Shown here: positions 1,299 to 38,526 of the stretch, in pieces
Numbering within the stretch: position 1 is the stretch's first letter
Layout: every line of letters starts with the position of its first letter
Source of the DNA: an uncultured Clostridia bacterium
GTDB taxonomy: Bacteria > Bacillota_I > Bacilli_A > RF39 > UBA660
Length of the DNA: 64,000 nt
Reading direction: 5' to 3'
NCBI GenBank assembly: GCA_947643225.1
Contig: CANRVH010000001.1
Location: forward strand, 6,868 to 70,867
The notes under the pieces: model-generated
The model's input: only the letters and a program-made list of their open reading frames with translations
Told to the model about the DNA's origin: nothing
Databases searched by the model: none
Program-made: the position numbers and the translations under genes

Positions 1299-1925
1299 AT
1301 GGCTAAATTTTCAAATTTACTAGTAATGCTTGAATTACTAAATACTGGTAGAAAATATAGTGTTAAAGAATTATCATCAGCTTTAGAGGTATCAGAAAGA
1401 GTAATTAGAGAATATAAATTATTTTTAGAAGAAGCTGGAATTTTTGTAGATACAATACGAGGTCCCTATGGTGGTTATATTTTAAGAAAAAATATTACTA
1501 TTCCTCCTCTTTTAATAGATAATAATGATATAAATATAATAAAACAAGTTATTAAAAATACTACTAATAATAAATTAAAGTCTAGTTTGAAAAATATTGA
1601 AAATAAAATAACAAAAAACTTATTAGAATTGGAAAATAACAATACTTCGTTTATAAACACAGAAGAAGAGTTAAAAGTATATAATGCTCTAAATAAAGCA
1701 ATAAAATATAATTATAAAGTAAAAATTAAGTACACTAATTTACAACACGGAGAATCGGTTAGGACTATCTATCCACTGGGAATGTATCTTTTTCAAAACG
1801 AATGGTGGTGTTCATCTTATTGGGAAGAAAAAGACGATATGAGACAATTTCATATTAAAAGAATTTTGGAGTGTAAAATCCTAGATTCAACATTTAATCC
1901 TAAAAAAATAAATATAAAATTTTAG
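1299..1925 (+). CDS. HTH-WYL domain transcriptional regulator (YafY/BrxR-like)
   Basis: The N-terminal HTH (LLNTGRKYSVKELSSALEVSERVIREYKLFLEEAGIFVDTIRGPYGGYIL) is typical of HTH_11/DeoR-N. The C-terminus has a WYL-like segment (VRTIYPLGMYLFQNEWWCSSYWEEKDDMRQFHIKRI). It starts 4 nt after the RhuM stop, so it is probably translationally coupled. Confidence 0.7.
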   Translation: MAKFSNLLVMLELLNTGRKYSVKELSSALEVSERVIREYKLFLEEAGIFVDTIRGPYGGYILRKNITIPPLLIDNNDINIIKQVIKNTTNNKLKSSLKNIENKITKNLLELENNNTSFINTEEELKVYNALNKAIKYNYKVKIKYTNLQHGESVRTIYPLGMYLFQNEWWCSSYWEEKDDMRQFHIKRILECKILDSTFNPKKINIKF

Positions 1926-1979
1926 TACAGACCAAATACCGCCTATATAAGTGGTATTTTATTTATGGGAGGGAGAAAA

Positions 1980-2450
1980 ATGTCAAACGAGAAAGAAATA
2001 AAACATTATATAGAAGTGTTTTATAATTATAACCCAGATAGGGGTACTCAAGAGGATTTTACTTATTCGCATATTGTCACGAATAGAGATCCTTTATTAT
2101 ATATGGAAAGATTTCATGGTGCTAAAGGATTTAGGTTTTTTGATGTTGATGTTTCTGATAATTCATTGAATAAAGAAAAAAGAACAAATATAAGCCCTAT
2201 GTATTATTATGGAAGGTATATGGCAGAACAAGAAATAGAGCAAGTTCATAATGTAATGCCGTTTACAATTAATATTACAAAAATGATTTATTGCTATTGT
2301 GGATGCTTGGTTACTGATTTGAATGAAGGAGATATGACATTAGAAACTTATGCAAACTTAGTAAATAATGAAGAACCTAATTTTGAAAGTAAGCAATTAC
2401 TAAAAATGTCCGTTGCATGTCCTAAAAAATGTGCTAAAATGGTAATATAG
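1980..2450 (+). CDS. hypothetical protein with Cys motifs (CYCGC…CPKKC)
   Basis: ORF in the same operon as the RhuM and WYL genes. ATG at 1980 with a GGGAGGGAG RBS is preferred over the ATG at 1965. No recognisable family. An intrinsic terminator follows it. Confidence 0.5.
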   Translation: MSNEKEIKHYIEVFYNYNPDRGTQEDFTYSHIVTNRDPLLYMERFHGAKGFRFFDVDVSDNSLNKEKRTNISPMYYYGRYMAEQEIEQVHNVMPFTINITKMIYCYCGCLVTDLNEGDMTLETYANLVNNEEPNFESKQLLKMSVACPKKCAKMVI

Positions 2451-2473
2451 GATAATTAGAAGAAGGACTGAGT

Positions 2474-2504
2474 TTGGAGAGATTTTATCTCTCTTTTTTG
2501 CGTT
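2474..2504 (+). terminator. rho-independent terminator after the RhuM-WYL-unknown operon
   Basis: GGAGAGATTTTATCTCTC hairpin followed by TTTTTTG. Confidence 0.7.
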
Positions 2505-2689
2505 CTTTTTTAATTATTCTATCAGAAAGGAGCGTGAAATATGAATGAAATATATTTAAACTGTCGGAGACTATAATGGGTCTTAGGGATTTCTCCCTAA
2601 CAAGAAAAGGGTGTGATAGCACCATGCTTGATAGTTTGAAATTATACTATGTGTCATAAGATGGAGATGATAATCTGAAAAACAAATGG

Positions 2690-3208
2690 ATGTATAGAAA
2701 TGATGTAGAAAGAAATTTAGGTGTATCAAGGAAACAATTAAATCATGCTATTAAAGTAATGGAAAAATATCATTATTTTGAAAATTGGATTTGGTATAAA
2801 TTAGGGCCAACTGATTTAATTGTTTTATTTAATTTAGAATTTGTTGATTGGTTAAAAGATGTATATTTTAATAAAGATGGATTTTTCTTAGACAGAGAAA
2901 TCCATTTTTTAAATGAAAAAATTAAAGATTTAGAAAATGAATTAGGTATTTCTCATTACGAGAAAAATTATCCATATCTAAATGTAAAAGAACTACAAGA
3001 ATACTTTGATAAAAGTAATAGCTCTATTTTAAAGGCAATTGAAAGAATGAATAGAAAAATTGATTGTAAATGCTATAAAGATGGAAAATTATATATTACT
3101 CCTACTGGAGTAAAATGGTTAGATCAAAACTATTATAGAAAATCATACCTTAAAGAGTTGTTAAATTATAAAAAAATACTAAATGAAAAGGAGAATAAAA
3201 ATGACTAA
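2690..3208 (+). CDS. hypothetical protein, possibly DNA-binding (element cargo)
   Basis: 172-aa ORF. The C-terminal segment VKELQEYFDKSNSSILKAIERMNRK looks HTH-like. No confident family assignment. Confidence 0.4.
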   Translation: MYRNDVERNLGVSRKQLNHAIKVMEKYHYFENWIWYKLGPTDLIVLFNLEFVDWLKDVYFNKDGFFLDREIHFLNEKIKDLENELGISHYEKNYPYLNVKELQEYFDKSNSSILKAIERMNRKIDCKCYKDGKLYITPTGVKWLDQNYYRKSYLKELLNYKKILNEKENKND

Positions 3209-8299: not shown

Positions 8300-8315
8300 A
8301 AGGGGGGAATAAAAA

Positions 8316-14646: not shown

Positions 14647-14649
14647 TAG

Positions 14650-16701
<2,052 letters not shown>

Positions 16702-18526: not shown

Positions 18527-18609
18527 TAAAGCGATAAAACTATTTAGAAAAAATTTACAAAAAGGAAAAGATATGTTATAATACATTGCAATTAAAGGGG
18601 GGTGAGAAG

Positions 18610-26233: not shown

Positions 26234-27769
26234 ATGAGAAAATATTTAAACATTATATCTATAATAATAGTTCTTGGCCTAATATACCCATTAAATATTT
26301 TTGCAGAAATAAAGATTGTAGATGATATATATAGTGAAACAATTCCTAGAGAATATGCCTTTACACCTAAGTTTATTGAAAATATAACAACAATGGAGGG
26401 ATCGGAGAGTTATAAAAAAATATGTCCTAATATTAATTGTTGGATAAGTGCTAGAAGAAAAAGCGATGGAAGTTTTGATGATTATTGGGCAATGTATAAA
26501 AATGTGGGAGTATGGAAAAGAAAAATTGTTGATATGAAAATCACTTTAGTCGATGTTGTTGATACTAATCCATCATCAAAATGTGCATACCATCTTAAAG
26601 AATTAGGAGAGGATATAGCTGATGATGATTATATTCGATTCCATATAATGCCAAAACAACTTGGCATAGAAGTGTTTACCGATTGTAGAAGCGAAGGAAC
26701 TACAGGTATTTTTAAAATAGAATTTTTTGATAACAATACAGGAGAAGAGCTTAAAGATTTAAAGAGTGTATTAAATTATGCTGACATTGATGGAGACGAA
26801 AGAATTTTATTGGATAATAACAGAGTAAAAGAAATGATTTATTATAAAACAGCCGAACAACATTTTCAACCAATAGAATTTAGTAATGATTATACTGTTC
26901 TAAGTGGAACAGAAAGATGGACTTGTACATTGCCAAGTGGAATGACAAAGGATGTCGAATGTATTAAATGTATTAATGGAAAATGTGAAAGAAATGCCCG
27001 AGAAAATACTTGTTTAGATCAAGATGGTAAAAATGGAAATAATGATAATTGCGGTGATTGCAATAAATCAGGTATGGTTACTACATTAAACGAAGGATCA
27101 TTTTTAGTAGGATGGGGAGGCTGGTATGTTGGTTTTTCTGCTGCTAGTCTTTTAAGAATCGAAGATCCAATTCCAATTAAAGAAGTCGATAAAGAAAAAG
27201 TAAAAGCCAAAGATGAAGAAGAAATTAATTATACAATAGAACAATACGTCCCAAACCAATCAACTGAACATTATTATAAATCATGGGTGCTTATTGATGA
27301 ACTAGAAAGTATATTAGAAACAAGCATTGATAATATTAAAATTAGAACCAATGGTAATGAAGATGTTACAGATAAATTTAATATCATACTAGAGAATAAT
27401 ACTTTAACAATTTCTGCTAAACAAGACTATGTATCATCAGATGAATTTTATAATTATGCAACTCAAGATGAATTCTATAATAGAACATTTTATATAGACA
27501 TTAAAGCAAAAGTCAGCAAAGATACAAAAGGACTAAAAGAAATTAAAAATCATACAGTATTGAGAATAGAATATAGTGATGGTACTCCAACAAAAGATAT
27601 TCTATCTAATGAGGTTACGACCATGATAGAAGAAGAAAAAATAGAAGAAATTATAGAAGTACCTAATACTGCTAAATTTATTGGTAAGATTGTTTTTATA
27701 GTTGGAAGTTTACTTATAATTAGTGGAATATTAATTATTATTAAAGTAAAAAAGAATCGACTTAATTAA
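26234..27769 (+). CDS. secreted Cys-rich surface protein with a C-terminal sorting-signal-like anchor (VPNTA + TM + KKNR)
   Basis: Signal peptide present. Cys cluster CTLPSGMTKDVECIKCINGKCER…CGDCNKSG. The C-terminus EVPNTAKFIGKIVFIVGSLLIISGILIIIKVKKNRLN parallels the VPDTN signal of the TED adhesin. Confidence 0.5.
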   Translation: MRKYLNIISIIIVLGLIYPLNIFAEIKIVDDIYSETIPREYAFTPKFIENITTMEGSESYKKICPNINCWISARRKSDGSFDDYWAMYKNVGVWKRKIVDMKITLVDVVDTNPSSKCAYHLKELGEDIADDDYIRFHIMPKQLGIEVFTDCRSEGTTGIFKIEFFDNNTGEELKDLKSVLNYADIDGDERILLDNNRVKEMIYYKTAEQHFQPIEFSNDYTVLSGTERWTCTLPSGMTKDVECIKCINGKCERNARENTCLDQDGKNGNNDNCGDCNKSGMVTTLNEGSFLVGWGGWYVGFSAASLLRIEDPIPIKEVDKEKVKAKDEEEINYTIEQYVPNQSTEHYYKSWVLIDELESILETSIDNIKIRTNGNEDVTDKFNIILENNTLTISAKQDYVSSDEFYNYATQDEFYNRTFYIDIKAKVSKDTKGLKEIKNHTVLRIEYSDGTPTKDILSNEVTTMIEEEKIEEIIEVPNTAKFIGKIVFIVGSLLIISGILIIIKVKKNRLN

Positions 27770-32806: not shown

Positions 32807-33664
32807 ATGAATAAACTAGCGATAGTAATAGTAAATTATAATGATTATGAAACAACAAAAATACTACTAGATAATATAAAAGATTATCAGTGTTTAACAA
32901 AAATAGTAGTTGTAGATAATCACTCAACAGACCATTCCTATAAACATCTAAAAAAACTAGCAAACAAAAAAATAGTAATTTTAGAAAACAAAAAAAGCAA
33001 AAGTTATGCTTCAGGATTAAACCTAGGAGCAAAATATTTAATTAAAGAATTAGGAAAATGTAACATAATTTTCTCTAATTCAGATATCATAATAAAAAAG
33101 GAAACAGATTTAGTAAAACTTTCTAAAGATACGAAAAAATTTAATATAGGAGTAGTAGGGCCAATAATTAACGAACATGGAAAACTAAATAGAGGATGGC
33201 CTCTACCTAACCCAAAGAAAGAAATTCTTTATAATTTACCATTAATAAATCGCTATTTTAAAAAGAAATACTCATCATATCAGGAAAGTCATTATAAGGA
33301 AGAACTAGCCATAGTAGGAGCAGTATCAGGATGTTTCTTTTTAGTAAATAGTGAACTTTTACAAGAAATAAACTTTTTTGATGAGGCTACTCACCTTTAT
33401 TATGAGGAAAATATTTTAGCCAAAAAAACAGAAAAAACAAATTATCAAATAGCAGTAGATACAAAAGTAGAAGTTATCCATAATCATTCAGTAACAATTG
33501 ATAAAATTGAAAGTAAAATTAGTAAATATAAAATACTGAAAGCTAGTCAAAGATACTTTGTAAAAGAATACTTAAAGGCAAATTGGATAGAAATGTTTTT
33601 CTTATGGACTACAAATAAATTATCCTTAATAATATTATATATAAGGTGTTTCATAAAAAAATAA
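32807..33664 (+). CDS. family 2 glycosyltransferase
   Basis: GT-A N-terminus LAIVIVNYNDYETTKILLDNI…VVDNHSTD and a DxD-type motif SNSDI. Confidence 0.7.
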   Translation: MNKLAIVIVNYNDYETTKILLDNIKDYQCLTKIVVVDNHSTDHSYKHLKKLANKKIVILENKKSKSYASGLNLGAKYLIKELGKCNIIFSNSDIIIKKETDLVKLSKDTKKFNIGVVGPIINEHGKLNRGWPLPNPKKEILYNLPLINRYFKKKYSSYQESHYKEELAIVGAVSGCFFLVNSELLQEINFFDEATHLYYEENILAKKTEKTNYQIAVDTKVEVIHNHSVTIDKIESKISKYKILKASQRYFVKEYLKANWIEMFFLWTTNKLSLIILYIRCFIKK

Positions 33665-33677
33665 GAAAGGTGATAAA

Positions 33678-34514
33678 ATGGACAAAAATAAAAAAGAAGG
33701 AAAAAAAGAACAATCAAAAGATCGAATCATAAACAACTTCTTACTTCTAGTAGTTTTAATTTTATTAGTATATATCCTCTTTGCAACAGGAGTGGTAAAA
33801 ATTAATAAATTAGATAAAGCAGCTCCTAAAAATGAAGAAACTGAAGAATTAGAGGAAAAGATTAAACTAAAAATAACAGACCCCTTAATAACCAATCTTT
33901 ATAAAAGTGTAGAATTAGGAAGAAGTTATCAGGCCTTGAGACATTATTACTTTTATAGCTATGATAAACTGTTTGTTAAATATATGGATGATGCTTTTAT
34001 TAAAGAAATGGCCTTATCAAAATTAACTTTACAAGATGAAAACAGTATAGATGCAAATATTATTAAAAGGCAGTTTGAATCGATTGTAGGAAATAATACA
34101 ATTTATAAAGATAGAACATTTCAGACCCAATGTTCAACCTTTAAGTATGATCAAACAAAAAATATTTATAATATTACCAAAAATCAAAATTGTAATCTGT
34201 CAAAAGAGGACAATAATGACTACTTTGATAAAATTATAAGTGCCTATAAATATAGTGATCGAATAGAAATTATTACAAGAGTAGGTTATTTAGAAGAAGA
34301 AAAAGAATTAGTAGGAGAAGGAGTGTATCAGTCAACAGGAAAAACACTCATTAAAAGAGATATGGATGCATCAGAAGTAATAGGAACATATACAGAAAAT
34401 TTAGATCAGATCAAGAAAAAAGTAGATTATAGCAAACTTCCACAATACAAATATACCTATAGACTAGATAATAATAAATATTATTTTTATTCAGTAGAAA
34501 AAATAGAAGGATAA
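33678..34514 (+). CDS. hypothetical N-terminally anchored extracytoplasmic protein
   Basis: TM helix followed by a hydrophilic domain. No family recognised. Confidence 0.4.
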   Translation: MDKNKKEGKKEQSKDRIINNFLLLVVLILLVYILFATGVVKINKLDKAAPKNEETEELEEKIKLKITDPLITNLYKSVELGRSYQALRHYYFYSYDKLFVKYMDDAFIKEMALSKLTLQDENSIDANIIKRQFESIVGNNTIYKDRTFQTQCSTFKYDQTKNIYNITKNQNCNLSKEDNNDYFDKIISAYKYSDRIEIITRVGYLEEEKELVGEGVYQSTGKTLIKRDMDASEVIGTYTENLDQIKKKVDYSKLPQYKYTYRLDNNKYYFYSVEKIEG

Positions 34515-34675
34515 AACTTGAATATACATAAGTATATATAAGTTTTTATTTAGTAATGAATTTAAGGTTATTAATATGTATAATTTCATACTTAAACCAA
34601 TAACAATTCTGATTATAAACAGTGATTTATTGTCTAATTTAAAATAACCAATACAATAAGTAAATACTTTTGAAA

Positions 34676-34725
34676 AGCAACCCATCCATCCCACTTGACA
34701 AAGTGGGGGGGGGTTGTTTTATAAT
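34676..34725 (+). promoter_or_regulatory. perfect TTGACA (34695-34700) and TATAAT (34720-34725) hexamers separated by a 19-nt spacer that contains a G9 homopolymer, embedded in a GC-rich inverted repeat. It is a candidate phase-variable promoter; an intrinsic terminator is the alternative reading.
   Basis: Read directly: caacccatccatcccacTTGACAaagtgggggggggttgtttTATAATg. The G9 run is exceptional in an AT-rich sequence of about 28% GC. The downstream gene at 34798 has a GAGGAG RBS. Confidence 0.5.
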
Positions 34726-34797
34726 GAAATAAAAGTAAGGTAAGAAAATACGACAATAAACGACTATAATATTGAAAATAAAAGCGAGGAGATAAAG

Positions 34798-35400
34798 ATG
34801 GGGAAAATAGTGAAAAAGAGTTATTGTATACTAATAGGAATAATGATGGGTGTGGTATTAGCTTATGGAGGAGTATATGCAGCAACGACAATTATGGGTA
34901 GTAATATCACCTATTCTAATGCAAATTCAGGACTTTCATCAACTCATATTCAAGGAGCAATCGATGAATTATATGATAAAATAAAGAACCCTACTTCAAA
35001 AGTATATTATTATGGAACCTTTAAAAAAAACAATAATATGTACACATTTTCAGGAGATTTTTTTGAAAATACAGTATATCATAAAGAAAAGACTTATTTT
35101 AAGTATACAAATAAGAAGTGGGTATTGTGCATAACTCAAAATACAAAAGAGGAATGTTTTGACATTTATAGAAATTACGAAAACGAAGTAAAAAATATAA
35201 AACAAGTATTTGGTGAAGAAAATTGTGTTGGATACAAAACTGGACCAAATGCAGCATATCCAGGTATAAGATGTTCAAATAACGATTTTGAATGTAGTAT
35301 TGAAGAATATATGGCTATAGGTTCATGCACAGATAAGAAAAATAGCGTAAAATGTTCCACACAATATGGCACAGATGGAAAATGTATTACTACTTCATAA
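34798..35400 (+). CDS. small secreted/anchored Cys-rich protein (about 12 Cys in the mature part)
   Basis: N-terminal hydrophobic anchor. Cys-rich C-terminal half (…CITQNTKEECFD…CVGY…CSNNDFECS…CTDKKNSVKCSTQYGTDGKC). Confidence 0.5.
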   Translation: MGKIVKKSYCILIGIMMGVVLAYGGVYAATTIMGSNITYSNANSGLSSTHIQGAIDELYDKIKNPTSKVYYYGTFKKNNNMYTFSGDFFENTVYHKEKTYFKYTNKKWVLCITQNTKEECFDIYRNYENEVKNIKQVFGEENCVGYKTGPNAAYPGIRCSNNDFECSIEEYMAIGSCTDKKNSVKCSTQYGTDGKCITTS

Positions 35401-35568
35401 TTATTTCAATATTATATAATTATACAAGTTTTATAATAGAAAGTATTTTTTAAATATTATACTAAAAAATCATTTTAATCATTATTTTTATTCTGTTTAA
35501 ATACTAATCTACTATTAATAAAAATATAAATATATGATAAAATAATAGTAGATTAAAAGGAGAAACTA

Positions 35569-38526
35569 ATGATGTTAAATATTAAAAGTAATTATTCTCT
35601 TCTTTCCAGTATGCTAAAAATAGATGATATTATAGAGTATGCCTTAAAAACTAATAAAAATTATGCTTCAATTTGTGACAATAATATGTATGGAGCAATG
35701 CACTTTTATAAAAAGTGTTTAGAAAAAAAGTTAAAGCCAATTATTGGTTTAGAAATAAAAACAGAAGAATTACATATCTCATTATATATAAAAAACTATG
35801 AAGGCTACCAATCCATAATCAAACTATCTACAATTAACGAAGAAAGAAAAGTAGAACGAGAAGATTTAAAAAAATATTCAAAAAGTTTAATATGTATTAT
35901 AAATTTCTCAAAAAAAGAAAATTTTGAAGAACTAAAAAATATTTATGAAGAGATCTATCTAGGATATACCAATAAAGAAGAAGAACAACTTGCTAAAGTA
36001 ATTACCCCTAACATAGTTTTCTTTAGAGAATGTCTTTATTTAGATAAAAAGGATTCTACTTATTTATCTTATTTATACCGAATAAGAGATGGTAAAACAA
36101 TATCTGATGATGATGATTATGATACTCAAAATCATGAGTTAAATCTTCCAAATATTTTAGAGTTAACAAGCAATGATGGCTTGATGAATATGGAAAAAAT
36201 CGTAACAGAATGTAACTTAGAATTTCCAAAAGCAGAATTATTATTACCAATATATCATCCTAATAACGGAATGAGTCCATCAGAGTACTTATTTGAATTA
36301 ACAAAATTTGGACTAAAAAAAAGAATCGGTGAAACTATCCCCGAAAAATATAAGAATAGATTAAGTTATGAATTAAAAATTATTAATGACATGGGTTTTT
36401 GTAATTATTTTCTTGTAGTTTATGACTTTATCAAATTCGCTAAAAAAAATGACATTTTAGTAGGACCAGGTAGAGGTTCAGCTGCAGGTAGCTTAGTAGC
36501 CTATACTTTAGGAATCACAGAAATCGATCCTTTAGAATATGACTTGCTATTTGAAAGATTCTTAAATCCAGAACGAAAAACAATGCCCGATATCGATACA
36601 GACTTTCCCGATGATAAGAGGGAATTGGTAATAAATTATGTAAAAGAAAAATATGGAGATAAACACGTAGCAGGAATTGTTACCTTTGGTACTTTAGGAG
36701 CAAAACAAGTTCTAAGAGATATAGGTAGAGTATTAAATATTCCTATTTATAAAATAGATAGCCTAACAAAATTAATCCCAACTATAACAAAAGATAAACT
36801 ATCAATAATCTATCAAAAAAATCAAAACTTTAAAGCCATTATAGATAGTGACACCTCACTAACAAATCTTTTAAGAATTGCAATAAATTTTGAAGGGTTT
36901 CCAAGACATACATCTTCCCATGCGGCAGGAATTGTCATGTGCGAAAAACCCCTTGATGAAGTCGTTCCTCTAACAATTAGTGATAATATGTACTTAACAG
37001 CCTATTCTATGGAATATTTAGAAGAATTGGGACTTTTAAAAATGGACTTTTTAGGTCTAAAAAATCTAAGTATTATTGCTAATATTATAAATGATATTGA
37101 AAAAACTTATCACCAAAAAATCAATTTTAATGCTATTCCTTTAAATGATCAAGAAGTTTTAAATATTTTTAAAGAAGCCGAAACGACAGGTATTTTTCAA
37201 TTTGAATCAAGTGGAATGAGAAACTTCCTAAAAAAATTAAAACCAAACACTTTTGAAGATATTTTTGCAGCAATCGCACTTTTCCGTCCAGGACCAGCAG
37301 TAAATATTGAAAGTTATATCAAAAGAAAACATCAAGAAGAAAAAATTACTTATCTTGATCCCTCTTTAAAACCAGTATTAGAAAATACTTATGGAATATT
37401 TATTTATCAAGAACAAATTATGCAAATTGCCAATATTTATGCAGGTTATTCTTTAGGAGAGGCAGATATCTTAAGACGAGCTATGAGTAAGAAAAAAATA
37501 GATCTGCTACAAAAAGAAGAAACTAAATTCATTACGAAGAGTAAAGAAAAAAACCATGATGATAAAACCTCAAAAAAGATTTTTGACTTAATTTTAAATT
37601 TTGCAAGTTTCGGTTTTAATCGATCCCATTCCGTAGCATATTCCCTTATTGCCTATAAATTAGCCTATTTCAAAGTACACTATAAGGAAGTATTTTATAG
37701 TAACTTATTAACTAATGTAATCAATGCCTCTTCGAAAACTTATGAATATATTTTAGAGATCAAATCGAAAAATATAAAAATAGAAAAACCAGATATTATG
37801 ATTAGTACAGACCGTTACTTAGTAAAGGAAAATACAATATATCTTCCTTTTTCGATCATTAATTCTGTAGGAAACGTTGCCTCAAAACAGATTTTAGAAG
37901 CAAGAAAAGAAGGGCAATTCATCGATATTTTTGATTGCTTTAGCAGGCTAGTCATAAATGGAATAACAAAGAAAACTTTAGAATCATTAATCTACTCCTC
38001 ATCTTTTAGAAGTTTTGGTTATAATATAGCAACATTAATTGAAAACCTAGATAATTTAATGAATTATGCAACATTAACCAAAGATTTAGATCCAGCATTA
38101 GTCATGAGGCCAGTTATTACTGAGAAAAAAGAGTTTAACCAAGAAATACTTTTAGAAGAAGAAAAAAAATTATTTGGACTTTATTTAACTCAACATCCAA
38201 CTAGCAAATATTTAAAAGAAAATCAAGATTGCATTCCACTAATAGAATTAAATCATTATATAAATAAAAAAATTAATACATTAGTTTATGTAGACAAAAT
38301 AAAAACAACCAAAACAAAAAAAGGCGATGATATGGCATTTCTTACAGGTAGTGATGACAGAACAAAAATAGAGTATCTGCTATTCCCAAACTCATATAGT
38401 ATGTATAATTACTTAGAAAGAGGCGATATCGTTAAAATATATGGTAGAGTAGAAAAAAGACTAAATGAATTACAGATTATTGTTAATAAAGTAACTGTAT
38501 TGAATGGAGAAATTAAAAATGACTAA
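35569..38526 (+). CDS. dnaE: DNA polymerase III alpha subunit, DnaE type
   Basis: The polymerase core motifs include PDIDTDF, GRGSAAGSLVAY, LFRPGP and ISDNMYLTAYSMEYLEELGLLKMDFLGLKNL. A C-terminal OB fold is present. The PHP N-terminus has lost its canonical His residues. Confidence 0.9.
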   Translation: MMLNIKSNYSLLSSMLKIDDIIEYALKTNKNYASICDNNMYGAMHFYKKCLEKKLKPIIGLEIKTEELHISLYIKNYEGYQSIIKLSTINEERKVEREDLKKYSKSLICIINFSKKENFEELKNIYEEIYLGYTNKEEEQLAKVITPNIVFFRECLYLDKKDSTYLSYLYRIRDGKTISDDDDYDTQNHELNLPNILELTSNDGLMNMEKIVTECNLEFPKAELLLPIYHPNNGMSPSEYLFELTKFGLKKRIGETIPEKYKNRLSYELKIINDMGFCNYFLVVYDFIKFAKKNDILVGPGRGSAAGSLVAYTLGITEIDPLEYDLLFERFLNPERKTMPDIDTDFPDDKRELVINYVKEKYGDKHVAGIVTFGTLGAKQVLRDIGRVLNIPIYKIDSLTKLIPTITKDKLSIIYQKNQNFKAIIDSDTSLTNLLRIAINFEGFPRHTSSHAAGIVMCEKPLDEVVPLTISDNMYLTAYSMEYLEELGLLKMDFLGLKNLSIIANIINDIEKTYHQKINFNAIPLNDQEVLNIFKEAETTGIFQFESSGMRNFLKKLKPNTFEDIFAAIALFRPGPAVNIESYIKRKHQEEKITYLDPSLKPVLENTYGIFIYQEQIMQIANIYAGYSLGEADILRRAMSKKKIDLLQKEETKFITKSKEKNHDDKTSKKIFDLILNFASFGFNRSHSVAYSLIAYKLAYFKVHYKEVFYSNLLTNVINASSKTYEYILEIKSKNIKIEKPDIMISTDRYLVKENTIYLPFSIINSVGNVASKQILEARKEGQFIDIFDCFSRLVINGITKKTLESLIYSSSFRSFGYNIATLIENLDNLMNYATLTKDLDPALVMRPVITEKKEFNQEILLEEEKKLFGLYLTQHPTSKYLKENQDCIPLIELNHYINKKINTLVYVDKIKTTKTKKGDDMAFLTGSDDRTKIEYLLFPNSYSMYNYLERGDIVKIYGRVEKRLNELQIIVNKVTVLNGEIKND

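Follow-up and report, generated by a model that had tools for sequence, protein, structure and literature searches.

Simple sequence repeats that switch surface proteins on and off are well documented in Neisseria, Haemophilus, Treponema, and the mycoplasmas. In Neisseria meningitidis, homopolymers lie between the −10 and −35 elements of porA, opc, and fetA (PMC2791445), and the core-promoter poly-G of porA and poly-C of opc and fetA control a surface protein through the fit of the promoter to the sigma factor (PMC2791445; PMC7864442). A poly-G tract is also found between the −35 and −10 elements of tp0126 in Treponema pallidum, for which a 17-nucleotide (nt) spacer is optimal, and at tprL of the same species most copies carry 9 G's, although expression is higher with 8 G's than with 10 (PMC7864442). 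Among the mycoplasmas, the vlp promoters of Mycoplasma hyorhinis, which belong to a multigene family of variable surface proteins, contain a poly-A tract and vmm of Mycoplasma mycoides a dinucleotide repeat, and transcription is turned on and off through these repeats (PMC10502178). For uncultured gut commensals, a literature search returned little on simple-repeat switching, the phase-variation papers being concerned with invertible promoters in Bacteroidales, and no account of such tracts in gut commensals of the lineage considered here was found in the incomplete library that was searched. The locus described here lies in a 64,000-nt stretch (the window) of contig CANRVH010000001.1 from assembly GCA_947643225.1 and comprises a run of nine G residues (G9) between the −35 and −10 hexamers of a promoter upstream of a gene for a 200-amino acid (aa) protein. 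An earlier note on this DNA had proposed the run as a candidate phase-variation switch.

All coordinates are those of the 64-kb window, in which the region 34300–35700 was read directly. Both hexamers agree with the consensus at every position (12 of 12; Table 1), and the spacer that separates them (34701–34719) is 19 nt in length, with the G9 run inside it. The positions given in the earlier note for the hexamers, the tract, the 19-nt spacer, and the open reading frame (ORF) were all exact on re-reading; the GC content, put there at about 28%, is 26.6% for the window. The G9 run is the sole run of G or C of at least 7 nt in the window, and about 0.002 G runs of at least 9 nt are expected from its base composition. 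The pattern TTGACA-N15–21-TATAAT occurs twice on the + strand of the window and not at all on the − strand; about 0.15 perfect pairs at that spacing would be expected per strand, as estimated from hexamer counts (12 TTGACA and 117 TATAAT on the + strand). A second TATAAT at 34765 has neither a usable −35 element (AAGAAA at 17 nt) nor a TG extension. No match with an E value of 1 or better was found in an Rfam scan of 34400–35650, and no riboswitch or known leader can therefore be assigned to this region. The next-longest G runs of the window are two G6 runs (8302–8307 and 18597–18602), both of which form part of a Shine-Dalgarno-like AAGGGGGG located 7–9 nt upstream of start codons; these sites could act as internal controls for homopolymer sequencing error.

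A different tract length was found for this promoter in an independent assembly of the same strain. Contig L067 (ENA ERZ14651017; 1,509 nt, 2.4x coverage) encodes exactly the 278-aa protein whose gene precedes the promoter in the window, and alignment of this contig with window positions 33603–35109 gave 0 mismatches and a single gap of 2 nt, by which the tract becomes G11 and the spacer 21 nt. L068, which comes from the same sample as L067, agrees with the window at every position over 3,731 nt (100% identity), and the length of the G run is the only difference between the window and the source of these two contigs in more than 5 kb. The pair of G9 and G11 is suggestive, as such a difference would be expected at a hotspot of slippage. 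When the promoter flanks were used as a pattern with a gap of variable length, no match came up in the metagenome_contigs and viral_contigs collections.

To identify promoters of the same layout, approximately 630 kb of fetched low-GC related DNA, including that around members of the 200-aa protein's family, were scanned without bias for any G runs of at least 6 nt inside promoters matching the consensus at 9 or more of 12 positions. Only the eight entries listed in Table 2 were returned. The promoters of L071, L120, and L154 are one homologous promoter, with a core more conserved than its flanks, and the others are unrelated in sequence; the layout is therefore found in five independent contexts, four of them besides the window. 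The distance from the 3′ end of the tract to the −10 hexamer is 0, 1, 6, or 10 nt across the promoters, and such variability is easier to reconcile with a device for setting spacer length than with a fixed site for protein binding. All products encoded downstream of a poly-G promoter carry a membrane helix or a signal sequence at the N terminus. Those of L071, L072, L120, and L154 belong to the same family as the 200-aa protein, the 464-aa product of the L018 gene bears both a signal sequence and a C-terminal anchor, and the L035 gene encodes a Cys-rich membrane-anchored protein that is unrelated to the 200-aa family (E above 0.1) and, judged by its sequence, is treated as a separate surface-protein family. 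Different simple repeats can be seen at the same place in other family members, namely T20 before the −10-like GATAGAAT in L073 (approximately 11–35) and (TA)8 in L087 (approximately 1555–1575), and several repeat types may serve the same purpose within this family. A repeat is absent from many other members, several of which lie directly behind another gene. Five separate G8–G10 runs within promoter spacers cannot be chance in DNA so rich in A and T. As a separate observation, the tract is G on the sense strand, never C, in all poly-G promoters, and no C runs of at least 8 nt (at least 7 nt in L073–L152) are found in the low-GC loci scanned; across five contexts this preference is weakly significant and could reflect either a replication-strand bias or a functional preference.

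Table 1. Features of the poly-G promoter locus in the window.
Feature	Position	Strand	Basis
−35 hexamer TTGACA, perfect consensus	34695..34700	+	sequence
G9 homopolymer in promoter spacer; G11 in otherwise identical contig L067	34705..34713	+	sequence, alignment
−10 hexamer TATAAT, perfect consensus, 19 nt past −35	34720..34725	+	sequence
Predicted transcription start (A), about 7 nt past −10; leader of about 65 nt	34732..34733	+	usual −10-to-start distance
Ribosome-binding site GAGGAG, 6 nt ahead of ATG	34786..34791	+	sequence
Gene for the 200-aa protein: N-terminal membrane helix/signal sequence, motif helix, beta-rich outer domain	34798..35400	+	ORF, alignment, AlphaFold2
GC-rich imperfect hairpin, A-run before and T-run after (terminator-like in both directions); −35 in loop, G9 as 3′ arm	34674..34720	+	fold
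AT-rich terminator-like hairpin just 3′ of the 278-aa stop, AAAACTTGAATATAC-ATAA-GTATATATAAGTTTT, then TATTT	34513..34546	+	fold
Lineage-specific insertion of about 1 kb, approximate bounds: hairpin, promoter, and 200-aa gene	34515..35498	+	gene order in L002, L012, L013

Table 2. Promoters with a G run of at least 6 nt found in the scan.
Promoter	−35	Tract	Spacer (nt)	−10
Window	TTGACA	G9	19	TATAAT
L067 (same strain)	TTGACA	G11	21	TATAAT
L071	TTGATT	G9	19	TATAAT
L120	TTGATT	G9	19	TATAAT
L154 / L155	TTGATT	G8	18	TATAAT
L072	TTGACA	G10	19	TATGAT
L018	TTGACA	G8	19	TATGAT
L035	TTGCAA	G10	19	TATAAT

The locus is probably a switch resembling those of porA, tp0126, and vlp, in which a slippage-prone poly-G tract sets the spacer of a sigma-A promoter, fused here to an insulating terminator. 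A two-in-one control region would have arrived together with a gene for a small surface protein. Its GC-rich hairpin and T-run (34674–34720) would stop transcripts coming from upstream, leaving the gene dependent on its own promoter, and the housekeeping-sigma promoter would overlap this hairpin, with the G run setting the distance between −35 and −10. Runs of G8–G11 would gain and lose bases by slipped-strand mispairing at replication, and the spacer would toggle between an active length of 17–18 nt and a weak or silent one of at least 19 nt. The outcome would be heritable, reversible expression of the protein, on/off or graded, in a subpopulation of cells, and for the window copy, with its 19-nt spacer, low or no expression is predicted. 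We infer that slippage is frequent and reversible and that 17 and 18 nt correspond to the on state and 19 nt to the off state.

Several points weigh against this reading. The sole difference in tract length was seen in a contig of 2.4x coverage, and sequencing errors are common in long G runs. Contig L001, from the same project as L067, begins with 129 nt of junk; it was considered as a rearranged allele (755 nt, 1.6x) and rejected, as its nt 1–129 are of low complexity, begin GGGGGCGGGG, and are unrelated to the window. This segment is probably a read or assembly artefact and serves as a warning on single-contig evidence from that project. Furthermore, L154 and L155, which are 99.1% identical, both carry G8, and L071 and L120, approximately 90% identical, both carry G9, so that at these distances no instability of the tract is seen. 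Spacer length raises a further difficulty. Ordinary consensus promoters of the lineage peak sharply at 17 nt (28 cases, versus 3–9 at each other spacing from 13 to 23), but a 17-nt spacer is found in none of the poly-G promoters, and in five independent contexts the spacer is exactly 19 nt, with G8, G9, or G10 offset by differing flanks. This repetition looks like selection for 19 nt rather than a sample of random phase states. As to what the earlier note had proposed, the phase-variable promoter is strengthened by the G11 copy in the same strain and by the recurrence of the layout in four non-homologous contexts, while rapid switching is not borne out, 99%-identical strains sharing G8; of the spacers that it took as optimal (18 or 17 nt), 17 nt is present in no copy, and 18 nt in L154/L155 only.

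A fixed promoter that does not switch is the likeliest of the alternatives, although we regard it as unlikely. The 19-nt spacer would then be a working design, recognized through a MerR-like activator that twists or bends the DNA or through the geometry of poly(dG) itself, and the G tract would be kept for structure or binding. MerR-family promoters have spacers of 19–20 bp, and a constant 19 nt in five contexts despite differing tract length and position, together with equal tracts in strains that differ by 1% and in promoters that differ by about 10%, is as such a design would have it. A factor with a fixed site is, however, poorly served by a tract whose distance from the −10 hexamer varies as described above. 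No dyad lies within the spacer: in the window the dyad has its center at the −35 hexamer (loop GACA), and no dyad is present in the other promoters. No regulator gene adjoins the locus, the neighbors encoding the 278-aa protein and DnaE with no regulator domain, and a MerR-type promoter, which fits the 19-nt spacer, was rejected for want of both a spacer dyad and a nearby merR-family gene. Spacers of 21 nt (G11, in the same strain) and 18 nt (L154/L155) also exist, and the presence of T20 or (TA)8 at this place in other family members points to the mutability of the repeat as the property held in common.

Slippage could also be retained with a different resting state. It is rather improbable, in our judgment less probable than a fixed promoter, that the 19-nt poly-G spacer is the selected working state across several species, with slippage adjusting expression about an optimum other than the usual one; poly-G might shorten or stiffen the helix such that 19 nt acts like 17, or a lineage-specific factor might be responsible. 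If true, a working 19-nt poly-G spacer would be a rule of promoter geometry not described for housekeeping sigma factors. The reading favored here for the repeated spacer is that the common gut genotype has the shortest of the over-long spacers that are fully off, from which one or two slips would restore the on state, because the position of the tract is variable, the spacer lacks a dyad, no regulator is nearby, and spacers of 18 and 21 nt occur. There is a precedent in tprL for a common genotype that is the less active one. In either case the repeated 19-nt spacer is a concrete puzzle about promoter spacing.

The strong hairpin that overlaps the promoter was then weighed as an explanation of the G run. 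The RNA of 34674–34720 folds at −27.3 kcal/mol (z = −4.2) into a hairpin of the form CAACCC...CCCACTT / AAGTGGG...GGGTTG followed by TTTT, and a T/U-run (TTTTATAAT) stands directly 3′ of this GC-rich stem-loop, as intrinsic terminators require. Its core (34678–34716; −21.9 kcal/mol, 59% GC) ranks first among 49 T-tailed hairpins on both strands of the window, the runner-up having −16.6 kcal/mol. A simple consensus terminator tool missed the hairpin because of the internal loop in its stem. It is improbable, nonetheless, that this element is a terminator only, with the G run serving as the GC-rich 3′ arm, the hexamers arising by chance, and the gene being transcribed from the TATAAT at 34765 or by read-through. 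The rank of the hairpin, its flanking A-run and T-run, and the abundance of TATAAT in this AT-rich DNA speak for this reading. Against it, TTGACA is rare and a perfect pair is hardly expected by the counts given above, the 34765 hexamer lacks the partners of a promoter, and the 5′ arm is CCCATCCATCCC rather than a C run, from which it follows that the stem needs no homopolymer. The tracts of L018, L035, L071, L072, L120, and L154 lie outside hairpins, yet between −35 and −10; only the tract of the window is paired, with the C-rich arm upstream of it, and the role shared by the G tracts is therefore in the promoter and not in termination. In L071, L120, and L154, a terminator-like hairpin overlaps the −35 hexamer too, with its T-run entering the spacer.

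Nor does the upstream gene depend on this hairpin for its end. The GC-rich hairpin sits about 160 nt 3′ of the 278-aa gene, which has a terminator-like hairpin of its own (the segment 34506–34575 folds at −12.7 kcal/mol), and a similar AT-rich hairpin with a T-run is found in L002 at the position matching 34513–34546 of the window. The envelope operon thus has no need of the GC-rich hairpin as its terminator, the function suggested for it in the earlier note; the hairpin and T-run that were noted there can be upheld, and the assignment to the upstream operon cannot. The hairpin is better read as an insulator belonging to the inserted cassette, and as such would terminate transcription in the cell. 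We infer that the fusion of an insulating terminator to a switchable promoter is part of the design, which would block read-through from upstream and keep the off state off. A switch acting through the terminator itself, in which the tract would be transcribed from an upstream promoter and its length would tune the hairpin stop and the read-through, loosely like pil1 of Streptococcus gallolyticus (PMC3894217), is very improbable. The G tract does lie in the stem, and a longer tract stabilizes the hairpin somewhat (−24.0 kcal/mol at G7 and −30.4 kcal/mol at G11), but on refolding with G5 to G13 the hairpin remained very stable throughout (−19 to −31 kcal/mol), and steps of 1–2 nt should therefore not open it or switch termination; the other poly-G promoters show no such pairing, and no leader ORF equipped with a ribosome-binding site extends across the tract. 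Attenuation by a leader peptide was rejected on this last ground. Also rejected was a short RNA consisting of the hairpin alone and made from a weak promoter-like site at 34630–34657, as the transcript would barely exceed the hairpin. Elsewhere in the window, a different composite of terminator and promoter can be seen at 14649–14684, just ahead of a 670-aa gene at 14689, where the hairpin GATTAGGTTTTACCTGATC and T9 are followed by GCTATAAT; there it is the T-run of the terminator, and not a G-run, that stands in front of the −10.

That the tract is a neutral leftover of the insertion described below, or a sequencing or assembly artefact with no role, is scarcely credible and has largely been refuted by the recurrence of the layout: the locus is indeed a lineage-specific insertion and low-coverage contigs of the L067 project do contain junk, but the tract lies within unique sequence in two independent assemblies, comparable tracts are found in several projects and hosts, and neutral runs of G8–G11 would neither persist at 26–33% GC nor hit promoter spacers five times.

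Nearly all genes of the window are on the + strand. Upstream of the promoter is a cell-envelope cluster that encodes an LtaS-type sulfatase, an LCP-family transferase with a PASTA domain, a family-2 glycosyltransferase, and the 278-aa protein of unknown function, and downstream of the 200-aa gene are dnaE, lspA, and an RluD-like gene. Matches to DnaE come from metagenome-assembled genomes of uncultured gut 'Bacilli', 'Erysipelotrichaceae', or 'Tenericutes' from human, mouse, rabbit, and ruminant samples; the best of these are only 79 and 74% identical, and the species itself is therefore absent from the reference genomes. Gene order in relatives was compared by tblastn. In three of them, L002, L012, and L013, dnaE directly follows the 278-aa gene, with neither the 200-aa gene nor its promoter in between, and these are therefore a lineage-specific insertion in the window (Table 1). 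The 86 nt between the two genes in L002 consist of an AT-rich hairpin and T-run followed by a conserved dnaE promoter, and the conserved dnaE promoter region resumes at approximately 35499 in the window. In L018, which is from a different species, an unrelated gene with a poly-G promoter (1675–3129) occupies the same slot immediately upstream of dnaE, and cassettes with a poly-G promoter may land preferentially in the intergenic region next to dnaE. Further upstream in the window, just ahead of the LtaS-like gene, a 511-aa protein (26234–27769) contains an RrgB-like isopeptide-forming fimbrial domain; at the matching position upstream of ltaS, L002 has copies of the 200-aa (p200-type) family instead.

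The 200-aa protein is predicted from its model to be surface-exposed. It contains 9 cysteines (residues 10, 111, 120, 143, 159, 166, 177, 186, and 196), of which the first falls within the membrane helix and the other eight within the outer domain, and in the family alignment C111, C120, C143, C159, C186, and C196 are invariant or nearly so. The exported, Cys-rich character assigned to it in the earlier note thus agrees with a predicted membrane helix or signal sequence and a Cys-rich outer domain, with 9 cysteines in place of the approximately 12 given there. An AlphaFold2 model built with 34 family sequences had a mean predicted local distance difference test score (pLDDT) of 83, with values above 90 in the C-terminal half, and a model built with only 6 sequences was poor (pLDDT 52). 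The better model shows a membrane helix (4–33), a short helix (51–63) that carries the conserved motif ...SGLSST(N/H)(V/I)QGAIDELYDK, and a beta-rich domain (70–198) with the eight cysteines; on structure comparison, no solved structure matched it beyond generic beta-sheets. The N-terminal membrane helix together with ...SNxxYxNxxSGLSSTNVQGAIDELY is the signature of a large family (a profile of the N-terminal part gave 197 matches, and the whole protein 717 cluster representatives at E ≤ 0.001), in which close relatives of the whole 200-aa protein are few, and family genes occur in tandem arrays. Searches of Pfam, NCBIfam, and PHROGs with the protein and its relatives identified no family, the only match being a weak one to an unnamed PHROG (E = 0.0015), and an exact-sequence look-up of the product returned no record. 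No relatives were found in viral contigs, and a phage origin of the N-terminal motif therefore has no support.

Other features of the family were also noted. The motif around ...SGLSSTNVQGAIDELY (window 34891–34992, residues 32–65) recurs 25 and 44 times in the giant proteins P0126 and P0127 (2,706 and 5,298 aa, respectively), and is therefore not only N-terminal but a repeat module widespread in large surface proteins. In L157 and L158 (2501–3366), the same frameshift splits a family gene into ORFs of 115 and 155 aa, and a family copy in L002 (463–984) has no intact N terminus in one frame; pseudogene decay seems to be common in the family. An IS3-type transposase pair (helix-turn-helix and rve domains) in L153 (1161–2296 and 2396–2460; the same sequence in L156) adjoins a deleted L154-type promoter, which has lost its poly-G and −10 together with the ribosome-binding site and start codon of the family gene. 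The coding sequence beyond the deletion is 99.7% identical, and it looks as if a gene that is otherwise switchable has been knocked out for good.

If the slippage reading is true, a lineage of uncultured low-GC gut Bacilli varies several surface-protein families by means of poly-G promoter tracts, which would bear on how these bacteria might evade antibodies and phages. The layout would provide a simple sequence signature that can be searched for in metagenomes, and heterogeneity of tract length in metagenomic reads would be biological information and not noise.

Among the systems described to date, porA shares with the locus a poly-G of similar length between −10 and −35. The locus differs from porA, opc, and fetA of N. 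meningitidis in that the host is a low-GC uncultured gut member of the Bacilli, of another phylum, and not a Gram-negative pathogen; in that the tract of the window doubles as an arm of a terminator hairpin; in that the modal spacer is 19 nt and not 17; and in that switching and its effect on expression are predictions here. In tp0126 and the tpr genes of T. pallidum, poly-G tracts of 7–11 nt are likewise found in promoters, there of genes for putative outer-membrane proteins, but T. pallidum is a spirochaete, the tpr tracts lie just upstream of the transcription start with no clear −35/−10 spacer, and no overlapping terminator has been described for tp0126 or tpr. Promoters regulated by the MerR family share the 19-nt spacer between good −35 and −10 hexamers, and differ in their dyad operator within the spacer and adjacent merR-type gene, where the promoters described here have a homopolymer whose position shifts from one to the next. 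The vlp and vmm systems, whose hosts fall in the same broad class as the organism of the window (Bacilli/Mollicutes-related), likewise combine a multigene family of surface proteins with simple repeats in promoters, to which T20 and (TA)8 add a further likeness here. The repeat of vlp is, however, poly-A and not poly-G, and Vlp proteins are lipoproteins with repeat regions, whereas the proteins described here are membrane-anchored or secreted, have a domain with eight cysteines, and bear no sequence relation to Vlp. What is new in this locus is the host lineage of uncultured low-GC gut Bacilli, the families of proteins controlled, the conserved 19-nt state, and the fusion of the tract to a terminator, which in the window goes as far as the use of the G tract as an arm of the stem.

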